Shown here piece after piece: positions 3,732-32,000 of a DNA stretch of 32,000 nt. How positions within the stretch are numbered: position 1 is the first letter of the stretch; every line of letters starts with the position of its first letter. This DNA is from Candidatus Thalassarchaeaceae archaeon (GTDB lineage Archaea; Thermoplasmatota; Poseidoniia; Poseidoniales; Thalassarchaeaceae), in contig JBJLBP010000001.1 in assembly GCA_045568075.1 (NCBI GenBank), forward strand, positions 1,566,521 through 1,598,520. Reading direction: 5' to 3'. The notes beneath the pieces were generated by a model, which ran no database searches, was not told where the DNA came from, and saw only the letters and a program-made list of their open reading frames with translations. The position numbers and the translations under genes were made by a program.

Positions 3732-4622
3732 GTGATAGCGGTCACAAATCACAAAGGTGGTTGTGGCAAGACGACAACTGCTGTGAATTTGGCTTCTGCG
3801 CTCGCAGTTGGGAATGAAGAATTTGGTATTGCTGGACGGCGAGTGCTATTGATTGATCTTGATCCAAAGGGAAATATCGCGACGACTTTTGGAATCGACA
3901 AGAAGAAACTCGGGTCGACGATGAATGATTTGTTCAAGGCGGGAATCGACGGCCCGAGCGTCCGTTTTGCTGATTGTTTGATCGGCCCTGAAGCATTGAC
4001 TGAGTCGATGAAAGAGGCTAATCGGCGGCAGAATCCTGAGCGAAAACGCGGACCGCCGAAAGGGCTAGCAGTGGAAAATCTCTGGTTACTACCAGCCGAC
4101 CTCGACCTCGCGGGTATCGAGATTGATTTGGCAACACGAATTGGTCGAGAGAATCGTTTGCGAAATGCGATGCAAGGTGCAATCGGTCATTTTGACGTGG
4201 TGATTATCGATACGCCGGCTTCTCTTGGGTTACTTACGGTGAATGCCCTAGCGGCTGCACAATGGGTGATGATTCCCGTGCAGGCCGAGTTCTACGCTCT
4301 AGAGAATATGAGCCAACTGATGAATACTGTACGTGATGTTCAGTCAGCGGTTAATCCAGGTCTGCGACTCTTTGGAATCGCTCTGACCATGGTTCAGCGG
4401 AGTCGCTTGTCCGAGACCGTCGCCGAGCAGGCTCGCAAGCACTTCGGCGACCGACTTTTCGAATCAGAGATCCCAAGGCTTGTCGCCATCGCTGAGGCTC
4501 CGCTCGATGGTGCACCAATTGTCATTGGCCAAAAACCAAACAAGTCAAATCCAGGGAGTAAGGCTTACTGGGATTTAGCCCTAGAGGTTTCAAACAGAAT
4601 AAAACTAATTCAGACACAATGA
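3732..4622 (+). CDS. ParA/Soj/MinD-family P-loop ATPase
   Basis: GTG start. Deviant Walker A NHKGGCGKTTT, LLIDLDPKGN, Walker B VVIIDTPASLG. Carries a basic insertion (EANRRQNPERKRGPPKG) relative to typical Soj. No ParB-like neighbour is visible. Confidence 0.85.
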   Translation: MIAVTNHKGGCGKTTTAVNLASALAVGNEEFGIAGRRVLLIDLDPKGNIATTFGIDKKKLGSTMNDLFKAGIDGPSVRFADCLIGPEALTESMKEANRRQNPERKRGPPKGLAVENLWLLPADLDLAGIEIDLATRIGRENRLRNAMQGAIGHFDVVIIDTPASLGLLTVNALAAAQWVMIPVQAEFYALENMSQLMNTVRDVQSAVNPGLRLFGIALTMVQRSRLSETVAEQARKHFGDRLFESEIPRLVAIAEAPLDGAPIVIGQKPNKSNPGSKAYWDLALEVSNRIKLIQTQ

Positions 4623-4632
4623 GGAAACTTAC

Positions 4633-6825
4633 TCAACTTCTTTTTGAAATTATTCTAAATACGACAGTTGCTGTGAAAATAATCATTGCAAAAATCAAGG
4701 CAATTGGAAGTAATGACCGGGAGTGTTTACTGGAATCGAGAGGATAGTAATCACCTTCATCAGACCAACCGTCTAAATCTGAATCGACGCAGCCTTTTCT
4801 GTCTTGAGTAGAGCTACCATAGATATCTGGGCAATCGTCAGACAAGTCTGTTCCAGTTTGGTCCCCGAATCCGTCTTTGTCTCTATCTGACCAAAGCAGT
4901 TCAGAAAATGGATGTGAATCTTCTAAATCAGACCATCCATCACCATCTGAATCGGGACATCCTAGGAAAGAAATTGTAGAGTTACCCCAAAGGTTCGGAC
5001 AATCATCGGGCATAGATGCTGGAAATAGATTATCTCCAAAACCATCTAAGTCACTATCTAACCATTGAGTGGAATCTTCTTGAAATGCGTCACCAGCATC
5101 TGACCACCCGTCGTTGTCTCTATCTTCACAACCATAACGATCTTCTGTGCTAGAACCTGCTACTATCGGACAATCATCTGGTAAGTAAGCCGGTGATGGA
5201 TTATCTCCAAAACCATCCAAATCCGAATCCTTCCACTGAGTATCTTGGATAGGAAAGGCATCCGCTCCATCCTCTACAGTCCAATTTATCGATGGATCTG
5301 AATATCCATCTTCATCTGCATCAGCACAACCCATTCTATCGAATTCAGAATAACCCTCTTCGAATGGGCAACTATCTGGATTTACTCCAATCGAATTGTC
5401 TCCAAAACCATCATTGTCTGAATCTAACCACTGTGTTTCATCTGTCGGGAAATCATCTGCTGAATCCGCCCAACTGTCAGCATCTGAATCTAAACATCCT
5501 CGAAATCCTAATGTTGAGGAGCCTGCTATTTCTGGACAGTCATCCGATAGTTCCGAGCCTTTTTGATCCGCAAATCCATCCCCATCCATGTCAGACCACA
5601 GAAGACTGTTGGTTGGGTAAACATCGATACTATCTCTAACCTCATCAAAATCTGTGTCTTGGTATGTGTCCAATCTGATTACACGATTTTTCTCCGAATC
5701 AACATACCACAGTTTTCCTTCGGGACCAATCTCAAGCCCCATGATTGAACCAGCATTTGTGTTCACAGTTCTGGAGTCTGTGAAATTTTTTCCATCTTCG
5801 TTTAGATTGAAACCTGTAATTTTTCCATTACCGTTTTGTGAAACAAACAAGACTCCTTGATGTAATTTTATTCCTGATGGAGATGACAGACCGGATGCTA
5901 AAATTCCCCAATCTACACTTGTCGCTCGATTATAGCCATCGAGAGGCTCCATTTGACTTTCTGCACCTCTTATGTCGCTAATTGTAACATTTGGATCTTG
6001 TGTGTTTACCCACAGAACTCTCCCCCCACCGGTATCTGCAACATACAACATTCCAGTTCCTTTATTCATATCCAAATGACCTGGCACACCGGGATTCCTA
6101 GTGAGTGAAATTTCGATGTATCTTGTTACAATTCCATCTGAGTGATCGTCTTCTCCAGTGTCATGATCTTGTTGAAAATCGTAGTGTACTAATTCCCCAT
6201 AATAGCCATCGTTGTACCAGTACGCATTGTCTGAGTCGTGAGCTATCCCCATTCCTTGAGGACTTTCATGTAACATATCGATATGGCTTCCCAACAAACC
6301 ACCTTGTTCCTGATTCTCTTCTGCAAAATGACTTAGCGAAGACGGCCAAAGAGCGGGACCCATGAAATCATTTGGATTTGCCTGACCATCGTAGGTGTTC
6401 CTAGATTCTTGTGCGGTTGCAAATTGGTAATCAAATTCCTCATGGTATTCTCCAAACGCAATCGCGCTTACCTCCTCCATGAAGTGGTTAGCATTGGAAT
6501 CTTTCCTGTATTCAGTGACTTGATTTGATTGGCCTGCATTATGAATAATCGTGACGCTATCTGTTGCTCGGTTTACAACCCAAAGTTCGTTTTGTCGTGA
6601 GGAATTAGGGTGAAATTCTAGATCCCGAGGGACATCCAAGTTATCTTGTGAAGAAGCTATTTCGGTTTCGATAAAACCAGGACCAAATTGTGAAATGTAT
6701 GTTTCTTTTTGAAAAATATTTTCTTCAGCCAAGGTTGGTGTAGATACCGTTCCAAGAACACTGATTACAAGTATCCCAATTAGAGCAGTAGTTGCGAGTT
6801 GGGAACGATACTTGTTTTTCGCCAT
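4633..6825 (-). CDS. secreted, membrane-anchored protein: beta-propeller (NHL-like) domain plus thrombospondin-type-3-like Ca-binding repeats
   Basis: 730-aa ORF. N-terminal signal/TM (LATTALIGILVISVLGTVSTPTLA). Blade-like segments (GMLYVADTGGGRVLWV, GKLWYVDSEKNRVIRLD). Five C-terminal modules of about 57 aa, each with two DxDxDG motifs. C-terminal TM (LLPIALIFAMIIFTATVVF) followed by a basic tail. Confidence 0.8.
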   Translation of the reverse strand: MAKNKYRSQLATTALIGILVISVLGTVSTPTLAEENIFQKETYISQFGPGFIETEIASSQDNLDVPRDLEFHPNSSRQNELWVVNRATDSVTIIHNAGQSNQVTEYRKDSNANHFMEEVSAIAFGEYHEEFDYQFATAQESRNTYDGQANPNDFMGPALWPSSLSHFAEENQEQGGLLGSHIDMLHESPQGMGIAHDSDNAYWYNDGYYGELVHYDFQQDHDTGEDDHSDGIVTRYIEISLTRNPGVPGHLDMNKGTGMLYVADTGGGRVLWVNTQDPNVTISDIRGAESQMEPLDGYNRATSVDWGILASGLSSPSGIKLHQGVLFVSQNGNGKITGFNLNEDGKNFTDSRTVNTNAGSIMGLEIGPEGKLWYVDSEKNRVIRLDTYQDTDFDEVRDSIDVYPTNSLLWSDMDGDGFADQKGSELSDDCPEIAGSSTLGFRGCLDSDADSWADSADDFPTDETQWLDSDNDGFGDNSIGVNPDSCPFEEGYSEFDRMGCADADEDGYSDPSINWTVEDGADAFPIQDTQWKDSDLDGFGDNPSPAYLPDDCPIVAGSSTEDRYGCEDRDNDGWSDAGDAFQEDSTQWLDSDLDGFGDNLFPASMPDDCPNLWGNSTISFLGCPDSDGDGWSDLEDSHPFSELLWSDRDKDGFGDQTGTDLSDDCPDIYGSSTQDRKGCVDSDLDGWSDEGDYYPLDSSKHSRSLLPIALIFAMIIFTATVVFRIISKRS
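4726..5643 (-). repeat. five tandem coding modules of about 170 bp (TQWLDSDxDGFGDN...DDCP...GSST...GC.DSDxDGWSD); boundaries approximate
   Basis: The repeat structure is read from the translated ORF 4633..6825. The modules are clearly homologous at protein level and diverged at DNA level. Confidence 0.7.
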
Positions 6826-6886
6826 ATGTAATCGACTGATTCATTCTATATGGTGACTATGTATCTATTCTTCATAACAAATCAGC

Positions 6887-7999
6887 TCAGATATCAATTC
6901 CTGTTAGGGCTTCGATACCCAACTCTGTAATCGAGAGAGAGACCTTCAATCCGAAGCGCCTTCTCTCGACCATCTCCCAGTCAATTAGCGAACGGACATG
7001 GTAGGAGAGGACTTGGGGTGATATCCCAATATCTCTAGCCAATTCAGACCCACTCGGTCCTGCTAAATCCATCAAATCGGCCTGATTTAGGTGCATGAGA
7101 ATTGAGCGTTTAATCGAATTCTTACTGAAATTAATATCAAGAAGAGGGCTTGAGAAAGAAGAGGCTGTAGGAACTGAATCCGCAAAGAAAATCAGCAATC
7201 TTCCATCTCTTCGAGACCAAATTCTACCTTCTTTTTCCAATCTGTCCAAATGATATGTGGCTTGGTTATTGCCTAGATCTGAGAGCCTTGTGAGAGCTGA
7301 AAGATGGATACCCGGGTTGCTCTCAATATATCCATACAAGCGCCCCCTCTGGAACTCTCCGTCTTTGGTTTTGCGAACAACTCCGAACATCAGAAGTAGA
7401 CTCAACCAAGCCTTGCGTGATACGGTCCATCTGACTGGTTCTACGGCATATACTGAACCGGCGGCAAGAATTGCCGCCGAGCCACCTACTGCAATCTGAA
7501 TTGTGGCTGGTTTGAGTACAATCTCTTGCTGGATTGGGTCGTGTACAACCGGCAGAGGAATGGGTAGCACTTCGCACCTGCCGTCTCCATTCAAATCCAA
7601 AGGGATGCTACTGCTGTCGATGGGTGAGGTTTCACACAGGATTTCATCAAAATCACTCCATCCATCTTCATCGGTATCCTTGTCTAGAGTATCACAGATT
7701 CCGTCTCCATCCAAATCATTGGGCACTGAGTCAACCAAGAGTGGGTCAGACCCACAGATTTGCTCGATATGGTCCCACCAACCATCGTTGTCATCATCCG
7801 CGTCAAGATGATCGCAGATTCCCGATGAATCGGTATCTTGTGGAACATCCTGCCAATTTTGTGGGTCGGTTCCACAGGACTCTTCATGGTAATCTGTCCA
7901 ACCATCGCCATCACTATCTCCATCTTCTGCTGAGACATTGAAGCTCGCCACGCTCAGCAATATCGCCAAGGTGAGCAGAAGCGAGGATAGACGACCCAT
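6887..7999 (-). CDS. membrane-spanning protein: extracellular TSP3-like repeats plus two cytoplasmic winged-helix (ArsR/MarR-like) domains
   Basis: 370-aa ORF. Signal peptide (LLLTLAILLSVASFNVSA). Three to four DxDxDGxxD/CG(T/S)DP modules. Two hydrophobic helices (IAVGGSAAILAAGSVYAV, AWLSLLLMFGVV). HTH-like segments follow: GIHLSALTRLSDLGNNQATYHLDRLEKEGRI and GSELARDIGISPQVLSYHVRSLIDWEMVER. Confidence 0.72.
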   Translation of the reverse strand: MGRLSSLLLTLAILLSVASFNVSAEDGDSDGDGWTDYHEESCGTDPQNWQDVPQDTDSSGICDHLDADDDNDGWWDHIEQICGSDPLLVDSVPNDLDGDGICDTLDKDTDEDGWSDFDEILCETSPIDSSSIPLDLNGDGRCEVLPIPLPVVHDPIQQEIVLKPATIQIAVGGSAAILAAGSVYAVEPVRWTVSRKAWLSLLLMFGVVRKTKDGEFQRGRLYGYIESNPGIHLSALTRLSDLGNNQATYHLDRLEKEGRIWSRRDGRLLIFFADSVPTASSFSSPLLDINFSKNSIKRSILMHLNQADLMDLAGPSGSELARDIGISPQVLSYHVRSLIDWEMVERRRFGLKVSLSITELGIEALTGIDI

Positions 8000-8021
8000 G
8001 AGACATTCTCACGTTCCTAGT

Positions 8022-9188
8022 TCAAAGGTTGTTCTCACAAGTCTGCCCGTGATAGTATGCAGCTGTACCATCTGGACAGATAGCCCAGTCCCAAGTGACA
8101 CCTGTAATATCCGCAGGCCCGTATGATGGGTTTAGGTAGGCGAGATCTGCTCCAGTCAAATCAGCGCCTGTTAGATTGGCGCCTCTGAGATCTAAGTCAT
8201 ACATCATCGCATTTGTCAGATCGGCATATGAGAGATCGACACCCATCCAATTTCCTCCGCCATAAATCCATGCGCCTGATAAGTTGGCACCGGACAAATC
8301 ACTCCACCTGAATTCTGTGTAAGCCAAATTACTCTGAACCATTATTGCATCGCTGAAGTCACTGCTTCTCCATACGCCATTATACATTGCAGCATGGGTA
8401 AAATCAGTACGATGGAATGTAGAAAACAAGCCGTCCGCACCCGCCAAATTAGCGTTAACGAAGCTAGCGTCGGAAAAGTTGGAATAACTCAAACTCGCAT
8501 TCATCAAGTTTGCAAAATCAAAAATTGGTGGATCCATTTGTACCCCCAAACCATTATTGAAATTGAACAATTGCGCGCCTTGGAAATCGAGGTAAGAAAA
8601 ATCATTCATTGCTCTAGTGTTATTCATCCTGTTCTCAAGGTCAGAAATTGAAGATTGAAGGCTTGATTGTAAAGATTGTAGTGACTGTTGTAATGCTGTA
8701 ATCTGAGATTCAAAGTCACCATCTGATGTATTCTCATCATCTAACGCTTCAACGATTAGTGAAATCTGATTGATTGAATCTTGGCTGTTCTGCAGATTGG
8801 ATTGCAGCGTGTTCAAGGAGGTTAGGAGATTGTTGATTGAGGCAGCATTTGTTGCATTGATTTCTTCCAATGATTGACTGTTTACAATCGCTGCTGCCTC
8901 CATGGCGGCCAGATAGCTCGATTCCAATTCAGTCAATGATTCCTGGTAATCAGATTCCAGTGTCTGAATCGCTTGCATATTTGCGGATTCAATCTGCGAA
9001 ATTGAAGCCAACAAATCGGAATTTGTTTGTTCTTGTTCTGCTAATACAAGTGTCAACTCCAGTTGTGATGTTTCTAACTCAGTGATTCGAGAATCATGAT
9101 TGGTAGTTTGGGCATCATTCGAAGTTGTACATCCGGCAAGGCTAGAGGCGATTATTAGCAAGGCTAGAGTTGCTGCTTTGGTTTGCAT
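8022..9188 (-). CDS. lipoprotein with coiled-coil region and C-terminal pentapeptide repeats
   Basis: 388-aa ORF. Signal with lipobox-like SLAGC. Q/S/L-rich heptad-like stretch (SLQSLQSSLQSSISDLE). Pentapeptide repeats follow (ANLAGADGLF, SDLSGANLSGA, ADLTNA, RGANLTGADLTGADLA). Confidence 0.8.
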   Translation of the reverse strand: MQTKAATLALLIIASSLAGCTTSNDAQTTNHDSRITELETSQLELTLVLAEQEQTNSDLLASISQIESANMQAIQTLESDYQESLTELESSYLAAMEAAAIVNSQSLEEINATNAASINNLLTSLNTLQSNLQNSQDSINQISLIVEALDDENTSDGDFESQITALQQSLQSLQSSLQSSISDLENRMNNTRAMNDFSYLDFQGAQLFNFNNGLGVQMDPPIFDFANLMNASLSYSNFSDASFVNANLAGADGLFSTFHRTDFTHAAMYNGVWRSSDFSDAIMVQSNLAYTEFRWSDLSGANLSGAWIYGGGNWMGVDLSYADLTNAMMYDLDLRGANLTGADLTGADLAYLNPSYGPADITGVTWDWAICPDGTAAYYHGQTCENNL

Positions 9189-9237
9189 GAATTGCCGATT
9201 GAGTTTCTAGACATAAGCAGATTGGGGGGGTTTCTTG

Positions 9238-9260
9238 ATACAGATAATCACCATCTGTAT
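9238..9260. promoter_or_regulatory. perfect inverted repeat ATACAGAT-N7-ATCTGTAT upstream of the 8022..9188 gene
   Basis: Read directly: atacagat aatcacc atctgtat, 50-72 nt upstream of the ATG at 9188. A G7/C7 homopolymer lies at 9224-9230 between the palindrome and the start. An operator role is only inferred. Confidence 0.25.
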
Positions 9261-9265
9261 TCTAA

Positions 9266-9283
9266 AATTAAAGATTTTTAATT
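9266..9283 (-). terminator. AT-rich hairpin with T-rich tract at the 3' end of the coiled-coil gene
   Basis: aattaaa-gatt-tttaatt (7-bp stem) overlaps the stop codon at 9283-9285, in a T/A-rich context. Archaeal terminators are typically oligo-T tracts. Weak call. Confidence 0.25.
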
Positions 9284-10377
9284 CAGTTAGAGCGCTCTAA
9301 GGCACTTTGACGAGCTTCGACAAGGATGGTTTCCCACTTCACCTTCAATTCTGACTCGAGTGCTTTCAGCATCTCCTTGATTTCCTTCTTTGAGAGGCCT
9401 TCACGCTTGGAAAATTGTTTCTCTAAATTCTCAAGCAACTCTTTCTCACGCTTCTTGCGAGTCTCGGCTAGACGTTGTTCCATCTCGACCTCGCGCTCGA
9501 GTGCCATCTCCTGACGCTTGAGGACAAGCGCAGCATCCATGGTTTCGCGCTCGGCTGCAAACCAACGGTCCAACTCAGCCAACATGCCCGCCTCGGCCTC
9601 CTCCTCCAAGGACTTCAGACGAACGTCCACGTCTGCAATCATGCCCTTTTCGCGGGATTTTGATTCTGCTGTGATCTGTTTTTCGAGTTCTGCCTCGTGC
9701 TTTTTTCGAGCGGCGGCAAGCCGCTCGCGCATGCCGATTTCTTGCTCGAGACGATATGACTCGACTTTGCGATGGACCTTAGATTCCTCAGCCTCACGAA
9801 GGTCCATTTCGACTCGGCGCTCCATACGATCCATGTCCTGAGATGCTTCGAGTTCGAGCCGATCATTCAGGAAGGCTTTGCGTCGATCGAACTCGGTCTC
9901 CATTTCTCCCTTCAAGCGATCTCGAAGTTTCGAAGTGTGTTCCTCGATGCGCCGGTCGCGCTCAAGATCTAATTGCTCGCGAAGACGATTCTCCTCCCGG
10001 CGCAATCGGTGAAGCATTTCCTCTCGAAGAAGTCGCTCTTCCCGCTCCAACGCCTCGGTCTCTAAGCGCTCCATCTCAACTTCTAGCTCAGCGCGCATAT
10101 CTGCCTCGATACGATGGAGTTCCTCTTCGAAAAGGATGTCATTCGCTTTACGCAACGCGCCGCGCATTCCCTCGACGCGTTCGCCCATCTCAGCCACGCG
10201 TCGACGACGTTCGCGACGCATTGCAGACCGAAGTTTGCCTTCATCATCAAGCCGATCGCGAGCACGACCAAGAGTGTCAATTGCAGAGGCTGCTGAACGT
10301 ACATGGGCTTCGCGCAGAGCCGCTAGTTCGTCGACACCATCCGCGTCATTACCATTGGGTGACTTGCTCTCACTCAC
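9283..10377 (-). CDS. Glu/Arg-rich long coiled-coil protein, function unknown
   Basis: 364-aa ORF with a GTG start. No TM segment or signal peptide. Almost entirely charged heptad-like sequence with internal duplications (RLAAARKKHEAELEKQI versus RLAETRKKREKELLENLEKQF). The many antisense ORFs are artefacts of GAG/CGC-rich codons. Confidence 0.7.
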   Translation of the reverse strand: MSESKSPNGNDADGVDELAALREAHVRSAASAIDTLGRARDRLDDEGKLRSAMRRERRRRVAEMGERVEGMRGALRKANDILFEEELHRIEADMRAELEVEMERLETEALEREERLLREEMLHRLRREENRLREQLDLERDRRIEEHTSKLRDRLKGEMETEFDRRKAFLNDRLELEASQDMDRMERRVEMDLREAEESKVHRKVESYRLEQEIGMRERLAAARKKHEAELEKQITAESKSREKGMIADVDVRLKSLEEEAEAGMLAELDRWFAAERETMDAALVLKRQEMALEREVEMEQRLAETRKKREKELLENLEKQFSKREGLSKKEIKEMLKALESELKVKWETILVEARQSALERSN

Positions 10378-14127: not shown

Positions 14128-14212
14128 TGGTGCAGGTGGCAGGATTCGAACCTGCGAAGCACTACGCAGAGGATCTTGAGTCCTCCCCCTTTGACCACTC
14201 GGGTACACCTGC
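14128..14212 (-). tRNA. tRNA-Leu (anticodon CAA), genomically encoded CCA
   Basis: The reverse complement folds as a cloverleaf. Acceptor GCAGGTG/CACCTGC, anticodon stem GAGGA/TCCTC with loop CTCAAGA, long variable arm, T-arm GCAGG-TTCGAAT-CCTGC, discriminator A plus CCA. Confidence 0.93.
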
Positions 14213-28543: not shown

Positions 28544-29224
28544 ATGGGCGAGGGCGACGAGGAACCGGGCTTCATCCAACTCGAGTTCGAAGAGTTGCCC
28601 GCAGATGAGATGCTCTCACGCGCACGTGACTTCTACGAGCAGATGGATGAGCGTCGAACAACTCGTCATTTCTCAAACAGAGAAGTTCCGCGTGAATTGA
28701 TTGAATTGGCCATTAAGACGGCTAGTACCGCACCTTCAGGGGCTCACTTACAACCTTGGACATTCGTTGCAATTTCTAATCCAGAAGTTAAGGCACAAAT
28801 CCGCGAGGCAGCCGAGGCTGAGGAGCGCAAGACATACTCTGAGAGAATGCCAGAAGCTTGGGCTGAGGTTCTGCGACCATTGGGGACAGATCACGTCAAA
28901 GAACATCTGAGTGATGCTCCTTGGATTGTTGTTGTTTTCAGGCAGAGCAAGCGGCAAAGAGACAGTGGCGAATGGGGGCCGACTTACTATGCTCAGGAAT
29001 CATGCGGAATTGCTGCAGGGCTGTTTATCGCTGCGATTCACAATATGGGATTGACAACGCTTACTCACACGCCTTCTCCGATGGGATTCCTTCGAGATAT
29101 TCTCAATCGACCAGAGCATGAGCATGCGATGTTGGTAATGCCGGTGGGGTATCCGGATGAGGGTGCTAAGGTTCCGAATCTGGGTCGGAAATCTCTGGAA
29201 AATATCTCAGAATTCTTTGAGTGA
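28544..29224 (+). CDS. nitroreductase-superfamily flavoprotein, iodotyrosine deiodinase (IYD)-like
   Basis: 226-aa ORF. RRTTRHFSNREVP...TAPSGAHLQPWTFV appears collinear with animal IYD as I remember it. The substrate-lid triad spacing is preserved: E-x3-Y (EERKTY), then Lys exactly 21 residues after the Tyr (HVKEHL). Confidence 0.85.
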   Translation: MGEGDEEPGFIQLEFEELPADEMLSRARDFYEQMDERRTTRHFSNREVPRELIELAIKTASTAPSGAHLQPWTFVAISNPEVKAQIREAAEAEERKTYSERMPEAWAEVLRPLGTDHVKEHLSDAPWIVVVFRQSKRQRDSGEWGPTYYAQESCGIAAGLFIAAIHNMGLTTLTHTPSPMGFLRDILNRPEHEHAMLVMPVGYPDEGAKVPNLGRKSLENISEFFE

Positions 29225-29231
29225 ATCAGAG
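29161..29231 (+). repeat. direct repeat copy A (71 bp), covering the last ~21 codons, the stop and 7 nt of the nitroreductase gene
   Basis: gggtgctaaggttccgaatctgggtcggaaatctctggaaaatatctcagaattctttgagtgaatcagag. Aligned by eye to copy B with 8 mismatches and no gaps. Confidence 0.85.
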
Positions 29232-29252
29232 GGTACCAATCTGACTCATCCC

Positions 29253-29723
29253 TCAGTCTAGAATTGCTTCCAAGCCCAGAGATTCCTCATCACTAAGCCA
29301 ACTGAAGGTACTCTGTCTACGAATCAGGTACGCGAAGGGTGAGTTCCGAAGAGATGTTTCATTCAGTTGGTTCCTCTGTAGTTTCAACCTGATTCGCATC
29401 GCCTCTCCTCCACGGTTTTTGTGTCCATGAGTCCAAGAGCTGTCCATATCTCCGGTGGTCATCCTGACGTCCGATGCGGTTTCACCAACCGCGAGGAAGC
29501 CAGAACCGCCTGTACCGAGGAGAAAAACGGGTGTGCCCAGTGGCACGGATCCAGACTTTAGTCGACATGTCCATTCAATCTCCGCAACTGAGCCATCTGC
29601 GGGAATCTTCTCCCACCATTTCCAGTGCTTAGGGTTGCATCTTACTAGAAGCCCGAATCTCTCCGCCATGAGGGGCGCTAACTCGATGATGGCAAAAACG
29701 ATTCCCCGACACGGGCAAGTCAA
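29253..29723 (-). CDS. EVE/PUA-like small protein (likely start ATG at 29669, 138 aa)
   Basis: The pattern resembles the EVE fold consensus: FGLLVRCNPKHWKWW (yWLlKsNP..w), LGTPVFLLGTGGSGFLAVGETAS (GD.V.fYhs...giVGia.V.s), and C-terminal MRIRLKLQRNQLNETSLRNSPF...STFSWLSDEESLGLEAIL. Judged from memory of the family, not from a search. Confidence 0.45.
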   Translation of the reverse strand: MTCPCRGIVFAIIELAPLMAERFGLLVRCNPKHWKWWEKIPADGSVAEIEWTCRLKSGSVPLGTPVFLLGTGGSGFLAVGETASDVRMTTGDMDSSWTHGHKNRGGEAMRIRLKLQRNQLNETSLRNSPFAYLIRRQSTFSWLSDEESLGLEAILD

Positions 29724-29724
29724 A

Positions 29725-29795
29725 GGGTGCTAAGGCTCCGAATCTGGATTGTAAATCTCTAGAAAATATCTCAGAATTCTTCGATTGAATCGGAG
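29725..29795 (+). repeat. direct repeat copy B (71 bp), a displaced pseudo-3' end of the nitroreductase gene
   Basis: gggtgctaaggctccgaatctggattgtaaatctctagaaaatatctcagaattcttcgattgaatcggag. In frame it still reads GAKAPNLDCKSLENISEFFD-stop, versus GAKVPNLGRKSLENISEFFE-stop in copy A. It overlaps the stop of the 395-aa ORF. Confidence 0.85.
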
Positions 29796-30958
29796 TCTCC
29801 CCATTCGTGCTTTGCAACATAGCTCATAGCACTTTGAACTGACAATCTATTAGTTGAATTTCCTATTCTGACAAAAAACTCTTCTCTTGCTTCACTGGTA
29901 TTTGCAAAAACCGGTTCGTCGGATTTCAGAACATCCACGCGGGCAATGGTAACTCCTTTATGCTCAGGAAAACTAACCCTCACCTTCCTTGCTACAACCT
30001 GTTTTTCCAATGTATTGGTTAGCATACTGAATAAATCCAATTCATATCCGTCTAAATCTCCTCGCCCAGATAATTCCATGTCTTTTTGAATACCATAAGA
30101 ATCTCCATCATCCGAGACTCCAATGAACAGCGTCCCTCCATCAGCATTTAGAAATCCGGCGACAGTTCGAATTATTTTGTCACGAACTCTTGAAGCACTT
30201 TTGTTGGCAACATATCCGGGATCGTTCTTTGCTCGCGAATAATCAAACCAAATAGCAGGTTTGAATTCTACACTGACCGATTCGCCCCCTGAAATTAGAC
30301 TGGATGCATCGTCAGCTCCTGTTTCACTTCCTTTGAAACTAAATTCAGCATAGTGCGAAACTTGTTCTGAATTTACCATTCCTCCTTCAAGCAGTCTTTC
30401 GTATTCTTTCATTAGTGATACAATTCTAGTAAGAAAATAAATCAGCACAGGAGCCAAGCAATCAGCATCATCCATTAAGCATGTGAAAAATTTCTTTCTT
30501 GAACTGGTGTCATTGAGAATTTTGCTACGTAAATCTATTTCTTTAACTCCATTTTCTTGTAGCAAATTGAAGATATTTGGATAAATCCCACTTAGTTCTT
30601 TTATTGTAGTCATTGATGTTGTATATTTCTCAGGATTCTTCTTACTCGGGGTTGGGATTGTCAGATCCATTGCATATCCTTGTTCTTTCTGATTTACTGA
30701 AATTTTCAGTCGATTATTTAGTTGACCAAAAACCCACATAGGGCCATTAAATGCTCTTCCACCAATAACCCATTTATTGCCATTTTCTAATTGAATATAA
30801 TGAATTTCCATCCTTAGATTGTGCGGGCCTGTGGCATTGAAAATCAGTGCACTGCCCTCAACTATTTTTCTTTCGTCGCGCACAAACAAGGCCACAGACG
30901 AATCATTCGAATCATTTGAGAGGGTGAACTCCTCTACCCTCAGACCCCTCTCAACCAC
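29771..30958 (-). CDS. protein with unknown ~225-aa N-domain and C-terminal AlbA_2 (Schlafen-core-like) domain
   Basis: 395-aa ORF with a GTG start, 20 bp downstream of the methyltransferase stop. AlbA_2 hallmarks at about aa 224-375: GESVSVEFK, IIRTVAGFLNADGGTLFIGVSDDGDSYGI, FFVRIGNST. About 32-38% GC. Confidence 0.7.
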   Translation of the reverse strand: MVERGLRVEEFTLSNDSNDSSVALFVRDERKIVEGSALIFNATGPHNLRMEIHYIQLENGNKWVIGGRAFNGPMWVFGQLNNRLKISVNQKEQGYAMDLTIPTPSKKNPEKYTTSMTTIKELSGIYPNIFNLLQENGVKEIDLRSKILNDTSSRKKFFTCLMDDADCLAPVLIYFLTRIVSLMKEYERLLEGGMVNSEQVSHYAEFSFKGSETGADDASSLISGGESVSVEFKPAIWFDYSRAKNDPGYVANKSASRVRDKIIRTVAGFLNADGGTLFIGVSDDGDSYGIQKDMELSGRGDLDGYELDLFSMLTNTLEKQVVARKVRVSFPEHKGVTIARVDVLKSDEPVFANTSEAREEFFVRIGNSTNRLSVQSAMSYVAKHEWGDSDSIEEF

Positions 30959-30978
30959 ATTCGCAGATTAACTTATGA

Positions 30979-32000
30979 TTATTCAGTTTGATGAATAAGA
31001 ATTGAATGGCAAATTCTTGAAACCACTCCGCAAACCAATGCATTGCCCATAAAGAAAGCACGCCGACCATCACTCACTAAACCCGTATGATTATCAGGAA
31101 ATCCATTCAATCTTTCTAGTTCCACAGGAGTCAACCTCCTGACCCATTCCGTTTTTTTCAGACTGAGTCTCCCTCTAACCTTTGAATTTAATTTTTCATC
31201 TAACTTTAGACGCTTAATTTGTCCTTTTGTTGGTCTGAACTTTACTACATGTTTGAATCTAGATGGGGACCTTCCTCCTTCTCCTGTGACTATGGTTCTA
31301 GAGGGGCGTTCTAAGGCGTCTGGAAATGTGACTGGCCCTTCTGAGTATTTGTAGGTAAATCCATCTCGCCCCTCTCTCATTTCTTTCTTCCCACCTTTGA
31401 GGTAAATCCATCCTTTTGCCCTCAATACCGCTTCAGCATCAAGTATGTACTCATCAGGAATGGTTCCTGGAGTCTGAAGGACACCTCCAAGAGTCTGTTT
31501 TTCTCCGTCATAATTCCCTGAGTATTTCGATGTCCAAACAGTTCCATCTTTCATCACGCCACCGTTGCAGAAAGGACTTTTTTTGTCTCCTTCGCTAACA
31601 TTGAATTTACTTGAGATGTCAGCAAGATCATCACCATCCTCTGACAGAGGGAAAGTTTCCACATTCTCCAACTCATGAATGGGGAATGCCCTAGCTAGAA
31701 CACCGTCTTTCTCTATCACCGAATGAGGATTTTTCAGTTTACCATTCTGTTCTGCGAAGATGAAAACTCTCTTTCGTCTCTGTGGGAAACCGTATTCAGA
31801 GGCATCTATCACCCTCCATTCAACTGCATATCCTAATTCATTCAAAGAGGCGAGCATGACTGCGAAGTCTCTTCCTCTTTGATTTCTTGGCGATTTCAAT
31901 AATCTATCTACATTCTCCAGAAGAAGGTAATGAGGTCTCTTTTCTTCGAGAATCCTGTGAATCTCCCACCATAGAACCCCCTTCTTTCCAGATATCCCAT
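30979..32000 (-). CDS. DNA (cytosine-5) methyltransferase (5' part beyond the window edge)
   Basis: The frame is open to base 32000. Motif VI HYLLLENV, motif VIII FPQRRKRVFIF, a long target-recognition region (TIVTGEGGRSPSR), motif IX RRLTPVELERLNGFP, motif X MGNALVCGVV. Motifs I-IV are expected upstream of the window. Confidence 0.93.
   Translation of the reverse strand, partial: GISGKKGVLWWEIHRILEEKRPHYLLLENVDRLLKSPRNQRGRDFAVMLASLNELGYAVEWRVIDASEYGFPQRRKRVFIFAEQNGKLKNPHSVIEKDGVLARAFPIHELENVETFPLSEDGDDLADISSKFNVSEGDKKSPFCNGGVMKDGTVWTSKYSGNYDGEKQTLGGVLQTPGTIPDEYILDAEAVLRAKGWIYLKGGKKEMREGRDGFTYKYSEGPVTFPDALERPSRTIVTGEGGRSPSRFKHVVKFRPTKGQIKRLKLDEKLNSKVRGRLSLKKTEWVRRLTPVELERLNGFPDNHTGLVSDGRRAFFMGNALVCGVVSRICHSILIHQTE

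Follow-up and report, generated by a model that had tools for sequence, protein, structure and literature searches.

The 32,000-nucleotide (nt) window analyzed here (positions 1,566,521 to 1,598,520 of contig JBJLBP010000001.1, from the Candidatus Thalassarchaeaceae archaeon assembly GCA_045568075.1) ends in a low-GC block that encodes a C5 cytosine DNA methyltransferase (MTase) and a 395-amino-acid (aa) protein, here called ALBA, both on the minus strand. We propose that ALBA is a prokaryotic Schlafen (pSlfn) with an undescribed N-terminal domain (N-domain), and that it serves as a conserved accessory co-effector of a paraMORC-type ATP-dependent restriction island with a swappable DNA-marking module. 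We put the probability of this working model, taken as a whole, at roughly 55%. The evidence that carries it consists of the domain identities and motif conservation of ALBA, its gene linkage to a restriction machinery, the exchange of modification modules next to it, and the recurrence of its N-domain beside other effectors.

New here are the ALBA family itself (an unclassified N-domain joined to a SLFN domain), its tie to GHKL-helicase islands that mark DNA with 5-methylcytosine (5mC) or phosphorothioate, the broader spread of the N-domain, and a helicase-GHKL-PLD partner of DndCDE. That Schlafens act as antiviral tRNases in bacteria has only just been shown, and how they are wired into multi-gene systems is the question that the ALBA family addresses. 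It offers a compact test case, in which a Schlafen effector is found repeatedly inside an ATP-dependent restriction island with a swappable DNA mark. Loci or contigs are given L-numbers and relative proteins P-numbers, which are labels of this analysis.

ALBA has a Schlafen core with an invariant acidic signature

ALBA (29771..30958, minus strand, GTG start) is a two-domain protein, with an N-terminal sensor-like domain and a C-terminal AlbA_2/Schlafen nuclease-type domain. The AlbA_2/Schlafen core spans aa 226-372 (29843..30283, minus strand), where the Pfam model SLFN_AlbA_2 (PF04326) scored 51 bits against a gathering score of 25.3 (E = 2.6e-13). An earlier note, made from the letters of the window, had pointed to AlbA_2 hallmarks at E226, E231, F232, and K233 and to the string NADGGTLFIGVSDDG; these residues were read correctly, and the string is present in the open reading frame (ORF) as quoted. 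The Ex4ExK motif (E226-S-V-S-V-E231-F-K233; 30260..30283, minus strand) is of the same string type (ESVSVEFK) as ESQSIEFK of SLFN11, and Ex4ExK has been described as catalytic in Schlafens (PMC13056530). The third acidic residue is D283, in FIGVSD283DG (codon 30110..30112, minus strand), and not D272 as had been suggested: residue 272 is an alanine, and D273 next to it varies among family members. D283 aligns with the Asp of SLFN5 'GVHDE' (D233 in the numbering of 6rr9/7q3z). Together with E226, E231, and K233, it was invariant in 36 of 36 aligned members, including a subgroup with a replaced C-terminal domain.

An AlphaFold2 (AF2) model of ALBA, built on the 36-sequence alignment, had a pLDDT of 85.6 for the whole protein and showed two domains joined by a disordered linker (aa 209-216). 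By Foldseek, the C-terminal half matched 3lmm, SLFN13 (5yd0), SLFN14, and SLFN11 (E = 4e-5 to 8e-4), and a profile of the same half matched SLFN5, 11, 12, and 14 among PDB sequences (E = 1e-6 to 7e-3). An acidic triad on a Schlafen fold is thus present, with D283 in the third place. Domain score, the Ex4(E/D)xK motif with its downstream Asp, and the Schlafen-core fold all place ALBA among the pSlfns. No relative was found in IMG/VR, and a viral origin of ALBA was rejected on that result.

Judged from sequence, the Ex4ExK and D283 signature is compatible with catalysis and is not proof of it. The same signature is also present in BrxL-type and small membrane AlbA_2 proteins and so cannot be used to tell a nuclease from a protein that binds nucleic acids. 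ALBA could then be a regulator or adaptor whose AlbA_2 domain binds rather than cuts, acting either as a controller like DndB or the C-proteins of restriction-modification (R-M) systems, or as a DNA- or RNA-recognition subunit for the GHKL-helicase machine. Transcription of its gene and of the helicase/GHKL operon is often divergent, and the gene occupies the slot just upstream of dndC in L002, L107, L110, L115, and L119; both arrangements would suit a regulator. In canonical dnd clusters, the regulator gene dndB lies just upstream of dndC. The conserved residues of the N-domain are basic, the closest AlbA_2 relatives outside the ALBA family are BrxL-like BREX proteins (35-42% identity), and many bacterial AlbA_2 proteins carry helix-turn-helix (HTH) domains (PMC13056530). 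Against such a role, a Pfam scan detected no HTH or other DNA-binding domain in ALBA, and the signature has stayed invariant even where the whole C-terminal domain was replaced. Moreover, the other partners of the N-domain are effectors (HEPN, NERD, kinases, and NYN), not regulators. We regard a non-catalytic ALBA as distinctly unlikely and continue to treat it as a putative nuclease. Identity with DndB was rejected, as ALBA had no PADLOC, Pfam, or NCBIfam match to DndB; the analogy is one of position only.

In a group of relatives (L088, L090, and L096-L098; proteins P0018, P0021, and P0028), the N-domain is 81-93% identical at the nucleotide level, but from the linker onward a distant AlbA_2 domain follows. 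The swap point lies near window position ~30308 (aa ~217, in the inter-domain linker), and the swapped domain retains ExxxxExK and the Asp. In these loci, the effector domain has been exchanged via recombination at the domain boundary.

A methyltransferase and a GHKL-helicase island adjoin ALBA

The MTase gene (30979..>32000, minus strand) is represented in the window by its C-terminal 339 aa and stop codon. Its first ~111-121 aa are encoded past the window end, and the full length of 450-460 aa was seen in L001, a 4.6-kb metagenomic contig that encodes the exact ALBA protein and matches the window at 99% identity over 2304 nt. The MTase part matched PF00145 (model positions 82-322, E = 2.5e-36, 126 bits against a cut-off of 22), TIGR00675 dcm (4e-40, 138 bits against a cut-off of 100.65), and the PADLOC model MTase_II PDLC03329 (4e-103). 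Its translation shows ENV, QRRKR, TPVELERLNGFP, and GNA (motifs VI-X), in line with the motifs VI, VIII, IX, and X noticed at first reading. Motifs I and IV (FAGVGG and GGFPCQ) are visible only in L001, because the window truncates the gene. The protein is therefore classed as a Dcm-type C5 cytosine DNA MTase. An intergenic spacer of exactly 20 nt (30959..30978, minus strand) separates its stop codon from the GTG start of ALBA, and the shared atypical composition of the two genes was confirmed as well (GC of 0.394 for the ALBA ORF and 0.425 for the MTase part versus 0.513 for window positions 1-29200).

Partner genes had been anticipated past position 32000, and they were found in L001 and in L087, which is 97% identical to the window. 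Beyond the MTase, L001 encodes a divergently transcribed 538-aa superfamily 2 (SF2) helicase (ResIII, E = 2.6e-28; DEAD; Helicase_C), the stop codon of which overlaps the start of a GHKL ATPase gene. The full 663-aa GHKL protein, with an HATPase_c_3 domain, is encoded in L087 (domain score in L001/L087, 1.3e-15); it had no match among PDB sequences. With helicase and GHKL genes just past the window end, the MTase is not solitary. The pair of MTase and effector first envisaged therefore gives way to a larger module that also includes an SF2 helicase, a GHKL ATPase, and often a PLD nuclease.

Full-length ALBA proteins form ~62 clusters at 90% identity, all from metagenomes and none with a name; in 185,579 species-representative genomes, ALBA was found in two, an Acidimicrobiales and a Marinovum metagenome-assembled genome (MAG). 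We collected 43 ALBA loci and mapped their genes by phmmer against Pfam-annotated references. Wherever the sequence upstream of the ALBA gene extended for 3 kb or more, a GHKL ATPase was present (20 of 20 loci, and 15/15 after removal of redundancy). Of the 15 non-redundant loci, 11 had an SF2 helicase and 11 had a PLD/HKD protein (PLDc_2; RE_NgoFVII matched weakly). The same procedure applied to 78 control loci (1.2 Mb) centred on AlbA_2-only relatives returned 0 matches to any island partner. The defense setting that had been proposed for ALBA is supported. The association spans three gene orders, several GHKL subtypes, and ALBA genes with a GC of 0.36-0.61. In L002, L107, and L120, ALBA lies within a same-strand array (helicase > ALBA > DndC); the array of L002 reads GHKL > PC4-like > helicase > ALBA > DndC > small protein > DndD > DndE, with gaps of 62 and 72 nt flanking ALBA. 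A reverse search starting from the GHKL protein led to L130/L131, which again hold an ALBA gene. There, ALBA adjoins a divergently transcribed MTase, and the helicase, GHKL ATPase, PLD, and Dnd genes lie farther along the contig.

Several results weigh against a close tie between ALBA and this machinery. The window itself carries the MTase only, and the remaining module was read from contigs 97-99% identical to it. At least one complete helicase-GHKL-PLD-Dnd system, in a 3-Mb genome (L134), has no ALBA gene, and the GHKL family, with at least 974 clusters versus ~62 for ALBA, is more than 10 times larger. ALBA is therefore dispensable for the core system, and its gene is a recurrent accessory of GHKL-helicase systems, not a core part. 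In another GHKL context (L129), no ALBA copy was found within 10 kb. ALBA divergence tracked that of the GHKL ATPase (r = 0.35) and the helicase (r = 0.48) far less than that of the adjacent MTase (r = 0.85) or DndC (r = 0.92), and in L087 and L089, an ALBA identity of 93% goes with a GHKL identity of 39%. An obligate partnership of ALBA with the GHKL ATPase or helicase was unsupported by this mirror-tree test. Modules have been shuffled in these islands, and a shared integration hot spot could account for part of the association.

Since single-gene pSlfns work alone (PMC13056530), ALBA might be an independent neighbor, that is, a Schlafen system complete in itself (sensor and nuclease in one gene, as in RorSlfn5 and EcoSlfn7) that lies on the border of a defense-island hot spot and has no functional tie to the MTase or restriction proteins. 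Its position at the island edge, abutting a nitroreductase gene (window, L087, L089, L091, L095-97, and the P0009 contig), would fit this explanation. The same is true of the exchange of adjacent cassettes while ALBA stays (as in L087/L089 and in the low overall r for the GHKL ATPase), of the att-like repeats with alternative cargo at the junction, and of the GHKL system without ALBA in L134. Mere proximity accounts poorly for a GHKL ATPase in every non-redundant context and in none of the control loci, or for an association that holds across gene orders, GHKL subtypes, and base compositions. Nor would it predict the placement of ALBA inside co-directional arrays, with gaps of 62 and 72 nt, or the conservation of the 20-nt MTase-ALBA junction down to 49% identity. 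We therefore consider an independent system unlikely and favor ALBA as an accessory co-effector of the island. The helicase, GHKL ATPase, and PLD nuclease are better candidates than ALBA for the restriction activity.

Other genes recur in these islands. In L087, the long relative nearest to the window, no PLD nuclease was detected, and an 822-aa protein without a Pfam match follows instead. This protein belongs to a recurrent group of 640-850 aa without a Pfam, PADLOC, or PDB-sequence match that accompanies many islands (L087 1-2467, L094 1487-3958, L129 4774-7314, L002 2532-4847, L008 2876-4801, and L108 1-1411) and takes the place of the PLD nuclease in L087. One subtype has a ~200-aa PC4-like protein (ssDNA-binding fold) encoded between the GHKL ATPase and the helicase (L002 7639-8259, L006 1670-2257, and L120 2988-3602). 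A small opposite-strand gene pair (232 aa and 123/138 aa, no Pfam match) was located just upstream of the helicase gene at L129 3265-4473 and L130 2359-3612.

The DNA-marking module is interchangeable

A C5 MTase gene was present in the window and in nine or more loci, among them L001, L006, L087, L095, L096, L099, L108, L114, and L130. The 20-nt MTase-to-ALBA junction recurred in L006, L087, L095, and L096, the most distant case having 49% protein identity. Other loci carry phosphorothioation genes: DndC-small protein-DndD-DndE lie directly downstream of ALBA in L002-5, L107, L110, L115, and L119, and Dnd genes lie at the far island end in L088, L095, L109, L116/117, and L130. Some close ALBA homologs are found with DndC-DndD-DndE together with an MTase. 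Homologs that are 86-93% identical to ALBA also occur without a C5 MTase, with Dnd genes or other cassettes. One of them, P0009 (86% identical), is encoded beside the same nitroreductase gene as in the window, with GHKL-helicase, a D12 MTase, and DndC-DndD-DndE, and without a C5 MTase. The role of ALBA therefore cannot depend on reading 5mC or on being blocked by it, and ALBA is not a dedicated restriction partner of the MTase.

The link between ALBA and an MTase drawn in the earlier note thus stands for the recurrent junction and fails as a fixed partnership. It had led to the view of a two-gene R-M-like pair, in which the Schlafen-type protein is a restriction effector held in check by 5mC from the adjacent MTase. 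The 20-nt same-strand spacing, the common low GC, and the recurrence of the junction in four non-redundant groups of loci are what such a pair would show. The presence of the helicase and GHKL genes, the close homologs with Dnd or other cassettes in place of the MTase, and the availability of PLD nucleases as the DNA-cutting component make it very improbable, as does the fact that known Schlafens cut RNA, which DNA methylation cannot protect (PMC13056530, PMC13462974). A classical type II R-M pair was rejected as well, with a Schlafen-type protein as the partner and no obligate co-occurrence with an MTase. An accessory co-effector that can serve beside either mark is the reading we retain.

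The ABC ATPases of the island Dnd modules have no CxC motif; they are therefore of the DndD type and not of the PbeC type. An array of SF2 helicase-GHKL ATPase-PLD nuclease followed by DndC-small protein (60-64 aa)-DndD-DndE, sometimes with TusA and without DndA/DndB, was observed in L130/L131, L134, L088, L095, L109, and L116/117. It recurs both with and without the Schlafen gene, is not DndFGH, PbeABCD, SspE, or DndI, and could represent a restriction module linked to phosphorothioation that has yet to be described. The Dnd survey PMC10853773 has no mention, under GHKL, MORC, MutL, or HATPase, of a helicase-GHKL-PLD partner of DndCDE, and this partner lies outside the described phosphorothioate-dependent restriction modules.

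Comparison with known defense systems

The Schlafen-type effector had at first been taken as novel. That view has been overtaken, as prokaryotic Schlafens were shown in 2025-26 to be tRNase defense effectors (PMC13056530, PMC13462974). When pSlfns are fused to sensor domains, a trigger activates them as tRNases, and they protect against phage (PMC13056530). The Schlafen-Csx15 fusion Cash is a tRNase activated by cA4, and clustering with R-M systems has been reported for Schlafens that carry unknown domains (PMC13462974). Like RorSlfn5, EcoSlfn7, and Cash, ALBA combines a single AlbA_2/Schlafen domain carrying Ex4(E/D)xK with a non-catalytic unknown or sensor domain and is encoded in defense islands. 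It differs in the N-terminal position of its extra domain, the family of which is not represented in Pfam, NCBIfam, PADLOC, or PDB. The ALBA family also comes from marine metagenomes and MAGs only and is tied to GHKL-helicase modules with Dcm or Dnd marking.

Neighborhoods of GHKL, SF2 helicase, HKD nuclease, and cytosine methylase genes were described by Iyer, Abhiman & Aravind (2008) as predicted R-M systems (PMC2292703). The island resembles these MORC/paraMORC systems in its gene set, namely an HATPase_c_3 GHKL ATPase, a ResIII/DEAD helicase, a C5 methylase, and, in many relatives, an HKD/PLD nuclease. The GHKL gene is adjacent to the SF2 helicase gene in L001/L087, outside the window itself. 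The methylase is present, and the PLD nuclease is found in most non-redundant relatives (the 11 of 15 above), L087 not among them. PMC2292703 mentions no AlbA_2/Schlafen partner or phosphorothioation module, both of which the island has as recurrent or alternative parts.

The ATP-dependent restriction enzymes CglI and NgoAVII (PMC4267653, PMC5861437) resemble the island in uniting a C5 MTase, a PLD-family nuclease (in the island, the weak RE_NgoFVII match), and a DEAD-type helicase-like motor. PbeABCD/CxC-ABC, DndFGH, and DndI (PMC6459918, PMC10853773, PMC11662687) share with it modification-dependent defense, a PbeA-like SF2 helicase (island helicase against the PADLOC PbeA model, 6e-28), and an HKD nuclease. 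In the Pbe/CxC-ABC and Dnd systems, as in the island, methylase and phosphorothioation are interchangeable as the mark. The island differs in that the helicase and PLD nuclease are encoded by separate genes with the GHKL ATPase between them, and in its ABC ATPase of the DndD type. The Schlafen protein had no match to PbeB/C/D, DndF/G/H, or DndI. PbeABCD/CxC identity of the island was rejected, given a helicase without HKD fusion, ABC ATPases without CxC, and a Schlafen protein without a Pbe model match.

In PrrC-EcoprrI, a type I R-M locus also encodes an anticodon nuclease, which serves as an RNA-cutting suicide back-up effector. It is a conceptual analogue of ALBA only: the nuclease families are unrelated, and the analogy covers neither latency nor activation by an anti-restriction factor. 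In BrxL of BREX, the nearest AlbA_2 domains outside the ALBA family are fused to Lon-like/AAA modules. In SLFN-pAgo, the SLFN nuclease assembles when a GHKL domain binds ATP (bioRxiv 10.64898/2026.05.29.728809). The AlbA_2 domain is fused there to Ago/GHKL modules; the GHKL ATPase of the island is encoded by a separate HATPase_c_3 gene.

The N-terminal domain is shared with other effectors

The N-domain (aa 1-200; 30359..30958, minus strand) is beta-rich with a long C-terminal helix in the AF2 model. Modeled alone, it reached a pLDDT of 92.8 and a pTM of 0.90. It had no significant fold match in PDB or BFVD and no match in Pfam, NCBIfam, or PADLOC, in agreement with its initial description as uncharacterized. 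A profile search of 1.84 billion representative proteins returned 317 relatives, most of which are stand-alone proteins of ~190 aa. One stand-alone gene overlaps the stop codon of an NYN RNase gene (L121), and another is located in a radical-SAM/'GT4-conflict' neighborhood. In fusions, the N-domain is C-terminal to HEPN_Swt1 (P0206 and P0243), to NERD alone (P0184 and P0213), and to NERD plus Ser/Thr kinases matching the BREX PglW and MADS MAD6 models (P0144, P0154, P0156, and P0182). It is N-terminal to a PbeA-like helicase in P0152 and is joined to a second, distant AlbA_2 domain in P0133. Residues conserved across the family are structural or basic (R85, R144, R154/155, and R178) and include no acidic catalytic set.

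Because the N-domain pairs with many unrelated effector domains in conflict loci, it is most simply viewed as a sensor or docking module, and we regard this as its most likely function. The sensor label follows from the logic of domain architecture, the N-domain having no recognizable fold relative, and this too counts against our model. A Rosetta-stone argument for contact based on P0152 was not used, as its helicase is 24% identical to the island helicase over 117 aa.

In the PglW/MAD6-like proteins with NERD and tandem kinases (~960-1235 aa), the PglW match covers the first ~800 residues only and the N-domain is at the end. A C5 methylase gene is located 5 kb from the P0154 gene (L123). PMC10853773 mentions a gene for an 'MTaX1' domain (Krishnan et al. 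2020) in methylase-containing systems, a possible counterpart of the N-domain.

The combination of a confident structural model, the lack of any classification, and occurrence in PglW/MAD6-like kinases and in HEPN and NERD effectors makes the N-domain a subject in its own right. Its function would annotate several hundred uncharacterized proteins, and knowing its signal could explain the hand-over from restriction to abortive infection.

Proposed mechanism

In the working model, the MTase, or Dnd in its place, would mark host DNA as self, and the helicase, GHKL ATPase, and nuclease would attack unmarked DNA. The Schlafen protein would act as a co-effector or back-up, possibly in physical contact with the restriction proteins. 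An infection cue or a disturbed restriction complex would trigger the N-domain, upon which the SLFN domains would pair and cut RNA, most likely tRNA, leading to translation arrest.

A broader extension is speculative, and we hold it as doubtful. The N-domain would be a widespread, unrecognized trigger-sensing or docking module that couples modification-based immunity to diverse abortive effectors. In the archaeal island described here, the effector under its control would be a Schlafen tRNase that guards the restriction machinery, whether 5mC or phosphorothioate serves as the mark. If so, the modification systems served would include MORC-type R-M, Dnd, Pgl/BREX-like, and MADS-like kinase systems, the effectors would be Schlafen, HEPN, NERD, NYN, and Ser/Thr kinases, and the principle of PrrC-EcoprrI would be generalized.

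The island edge and the rest of the window

The nitroreductase gene at the boundary of the island (28544..29224, plus strand; PF00881, E = 2.5e-23) is a conserved chromosomal flank, also found in L087, L089, L091, L095-97, L100, L105, and the P0009 contig. An 81-nt direct repeat has its first copy at 29160-29240, holding the last 65 nt of the nitroreductase gene. The second copy (29724..29804) repeats the nitroreductase 3′ end in diverged form and extends over the final codons and stop of the ALBA gene. The copies are 85% identical and spaced by 564 bp. The insert between them (29241..29723) has a host-like GC of 0.52 and carries, on the minus strand, a 156-aa ORF (29253..29723) with no match in Pfam, NCBIfam, PADLOC, or PDB. 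It is missing from the closest relatives L087, L091, L095, and L096, and in L089 and L097 a MUG113/T5orf172 gene lies between copies of the same repeat. The repeat looks like an att-like site where cassettes accumulate.

The remaining window carries archaeal-type genes, among them those for an aIF5B-like GTPase, a family B DNA polymerase, a PUA protein, and an HVO_0163-type HTH protein. These genes make a marine archaeon the probable host. A second low-GC stretch (positions 4500-9500, GC of 0.41-0.43) may be a further block gained by horizontal transfer. Encoded in it are a 730-aa ORF without a Pfam match, an HVO_0163-type HTH protein containing TSP3 repeats, and a protein with pentapeptide repeats. 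The sole RNA gene identified in the window by ARAGORN and Rfam was a tRNA-Leu(CAA) gene at 14128-14212 on the minus strand (Rfam boundaries 14131-14212).

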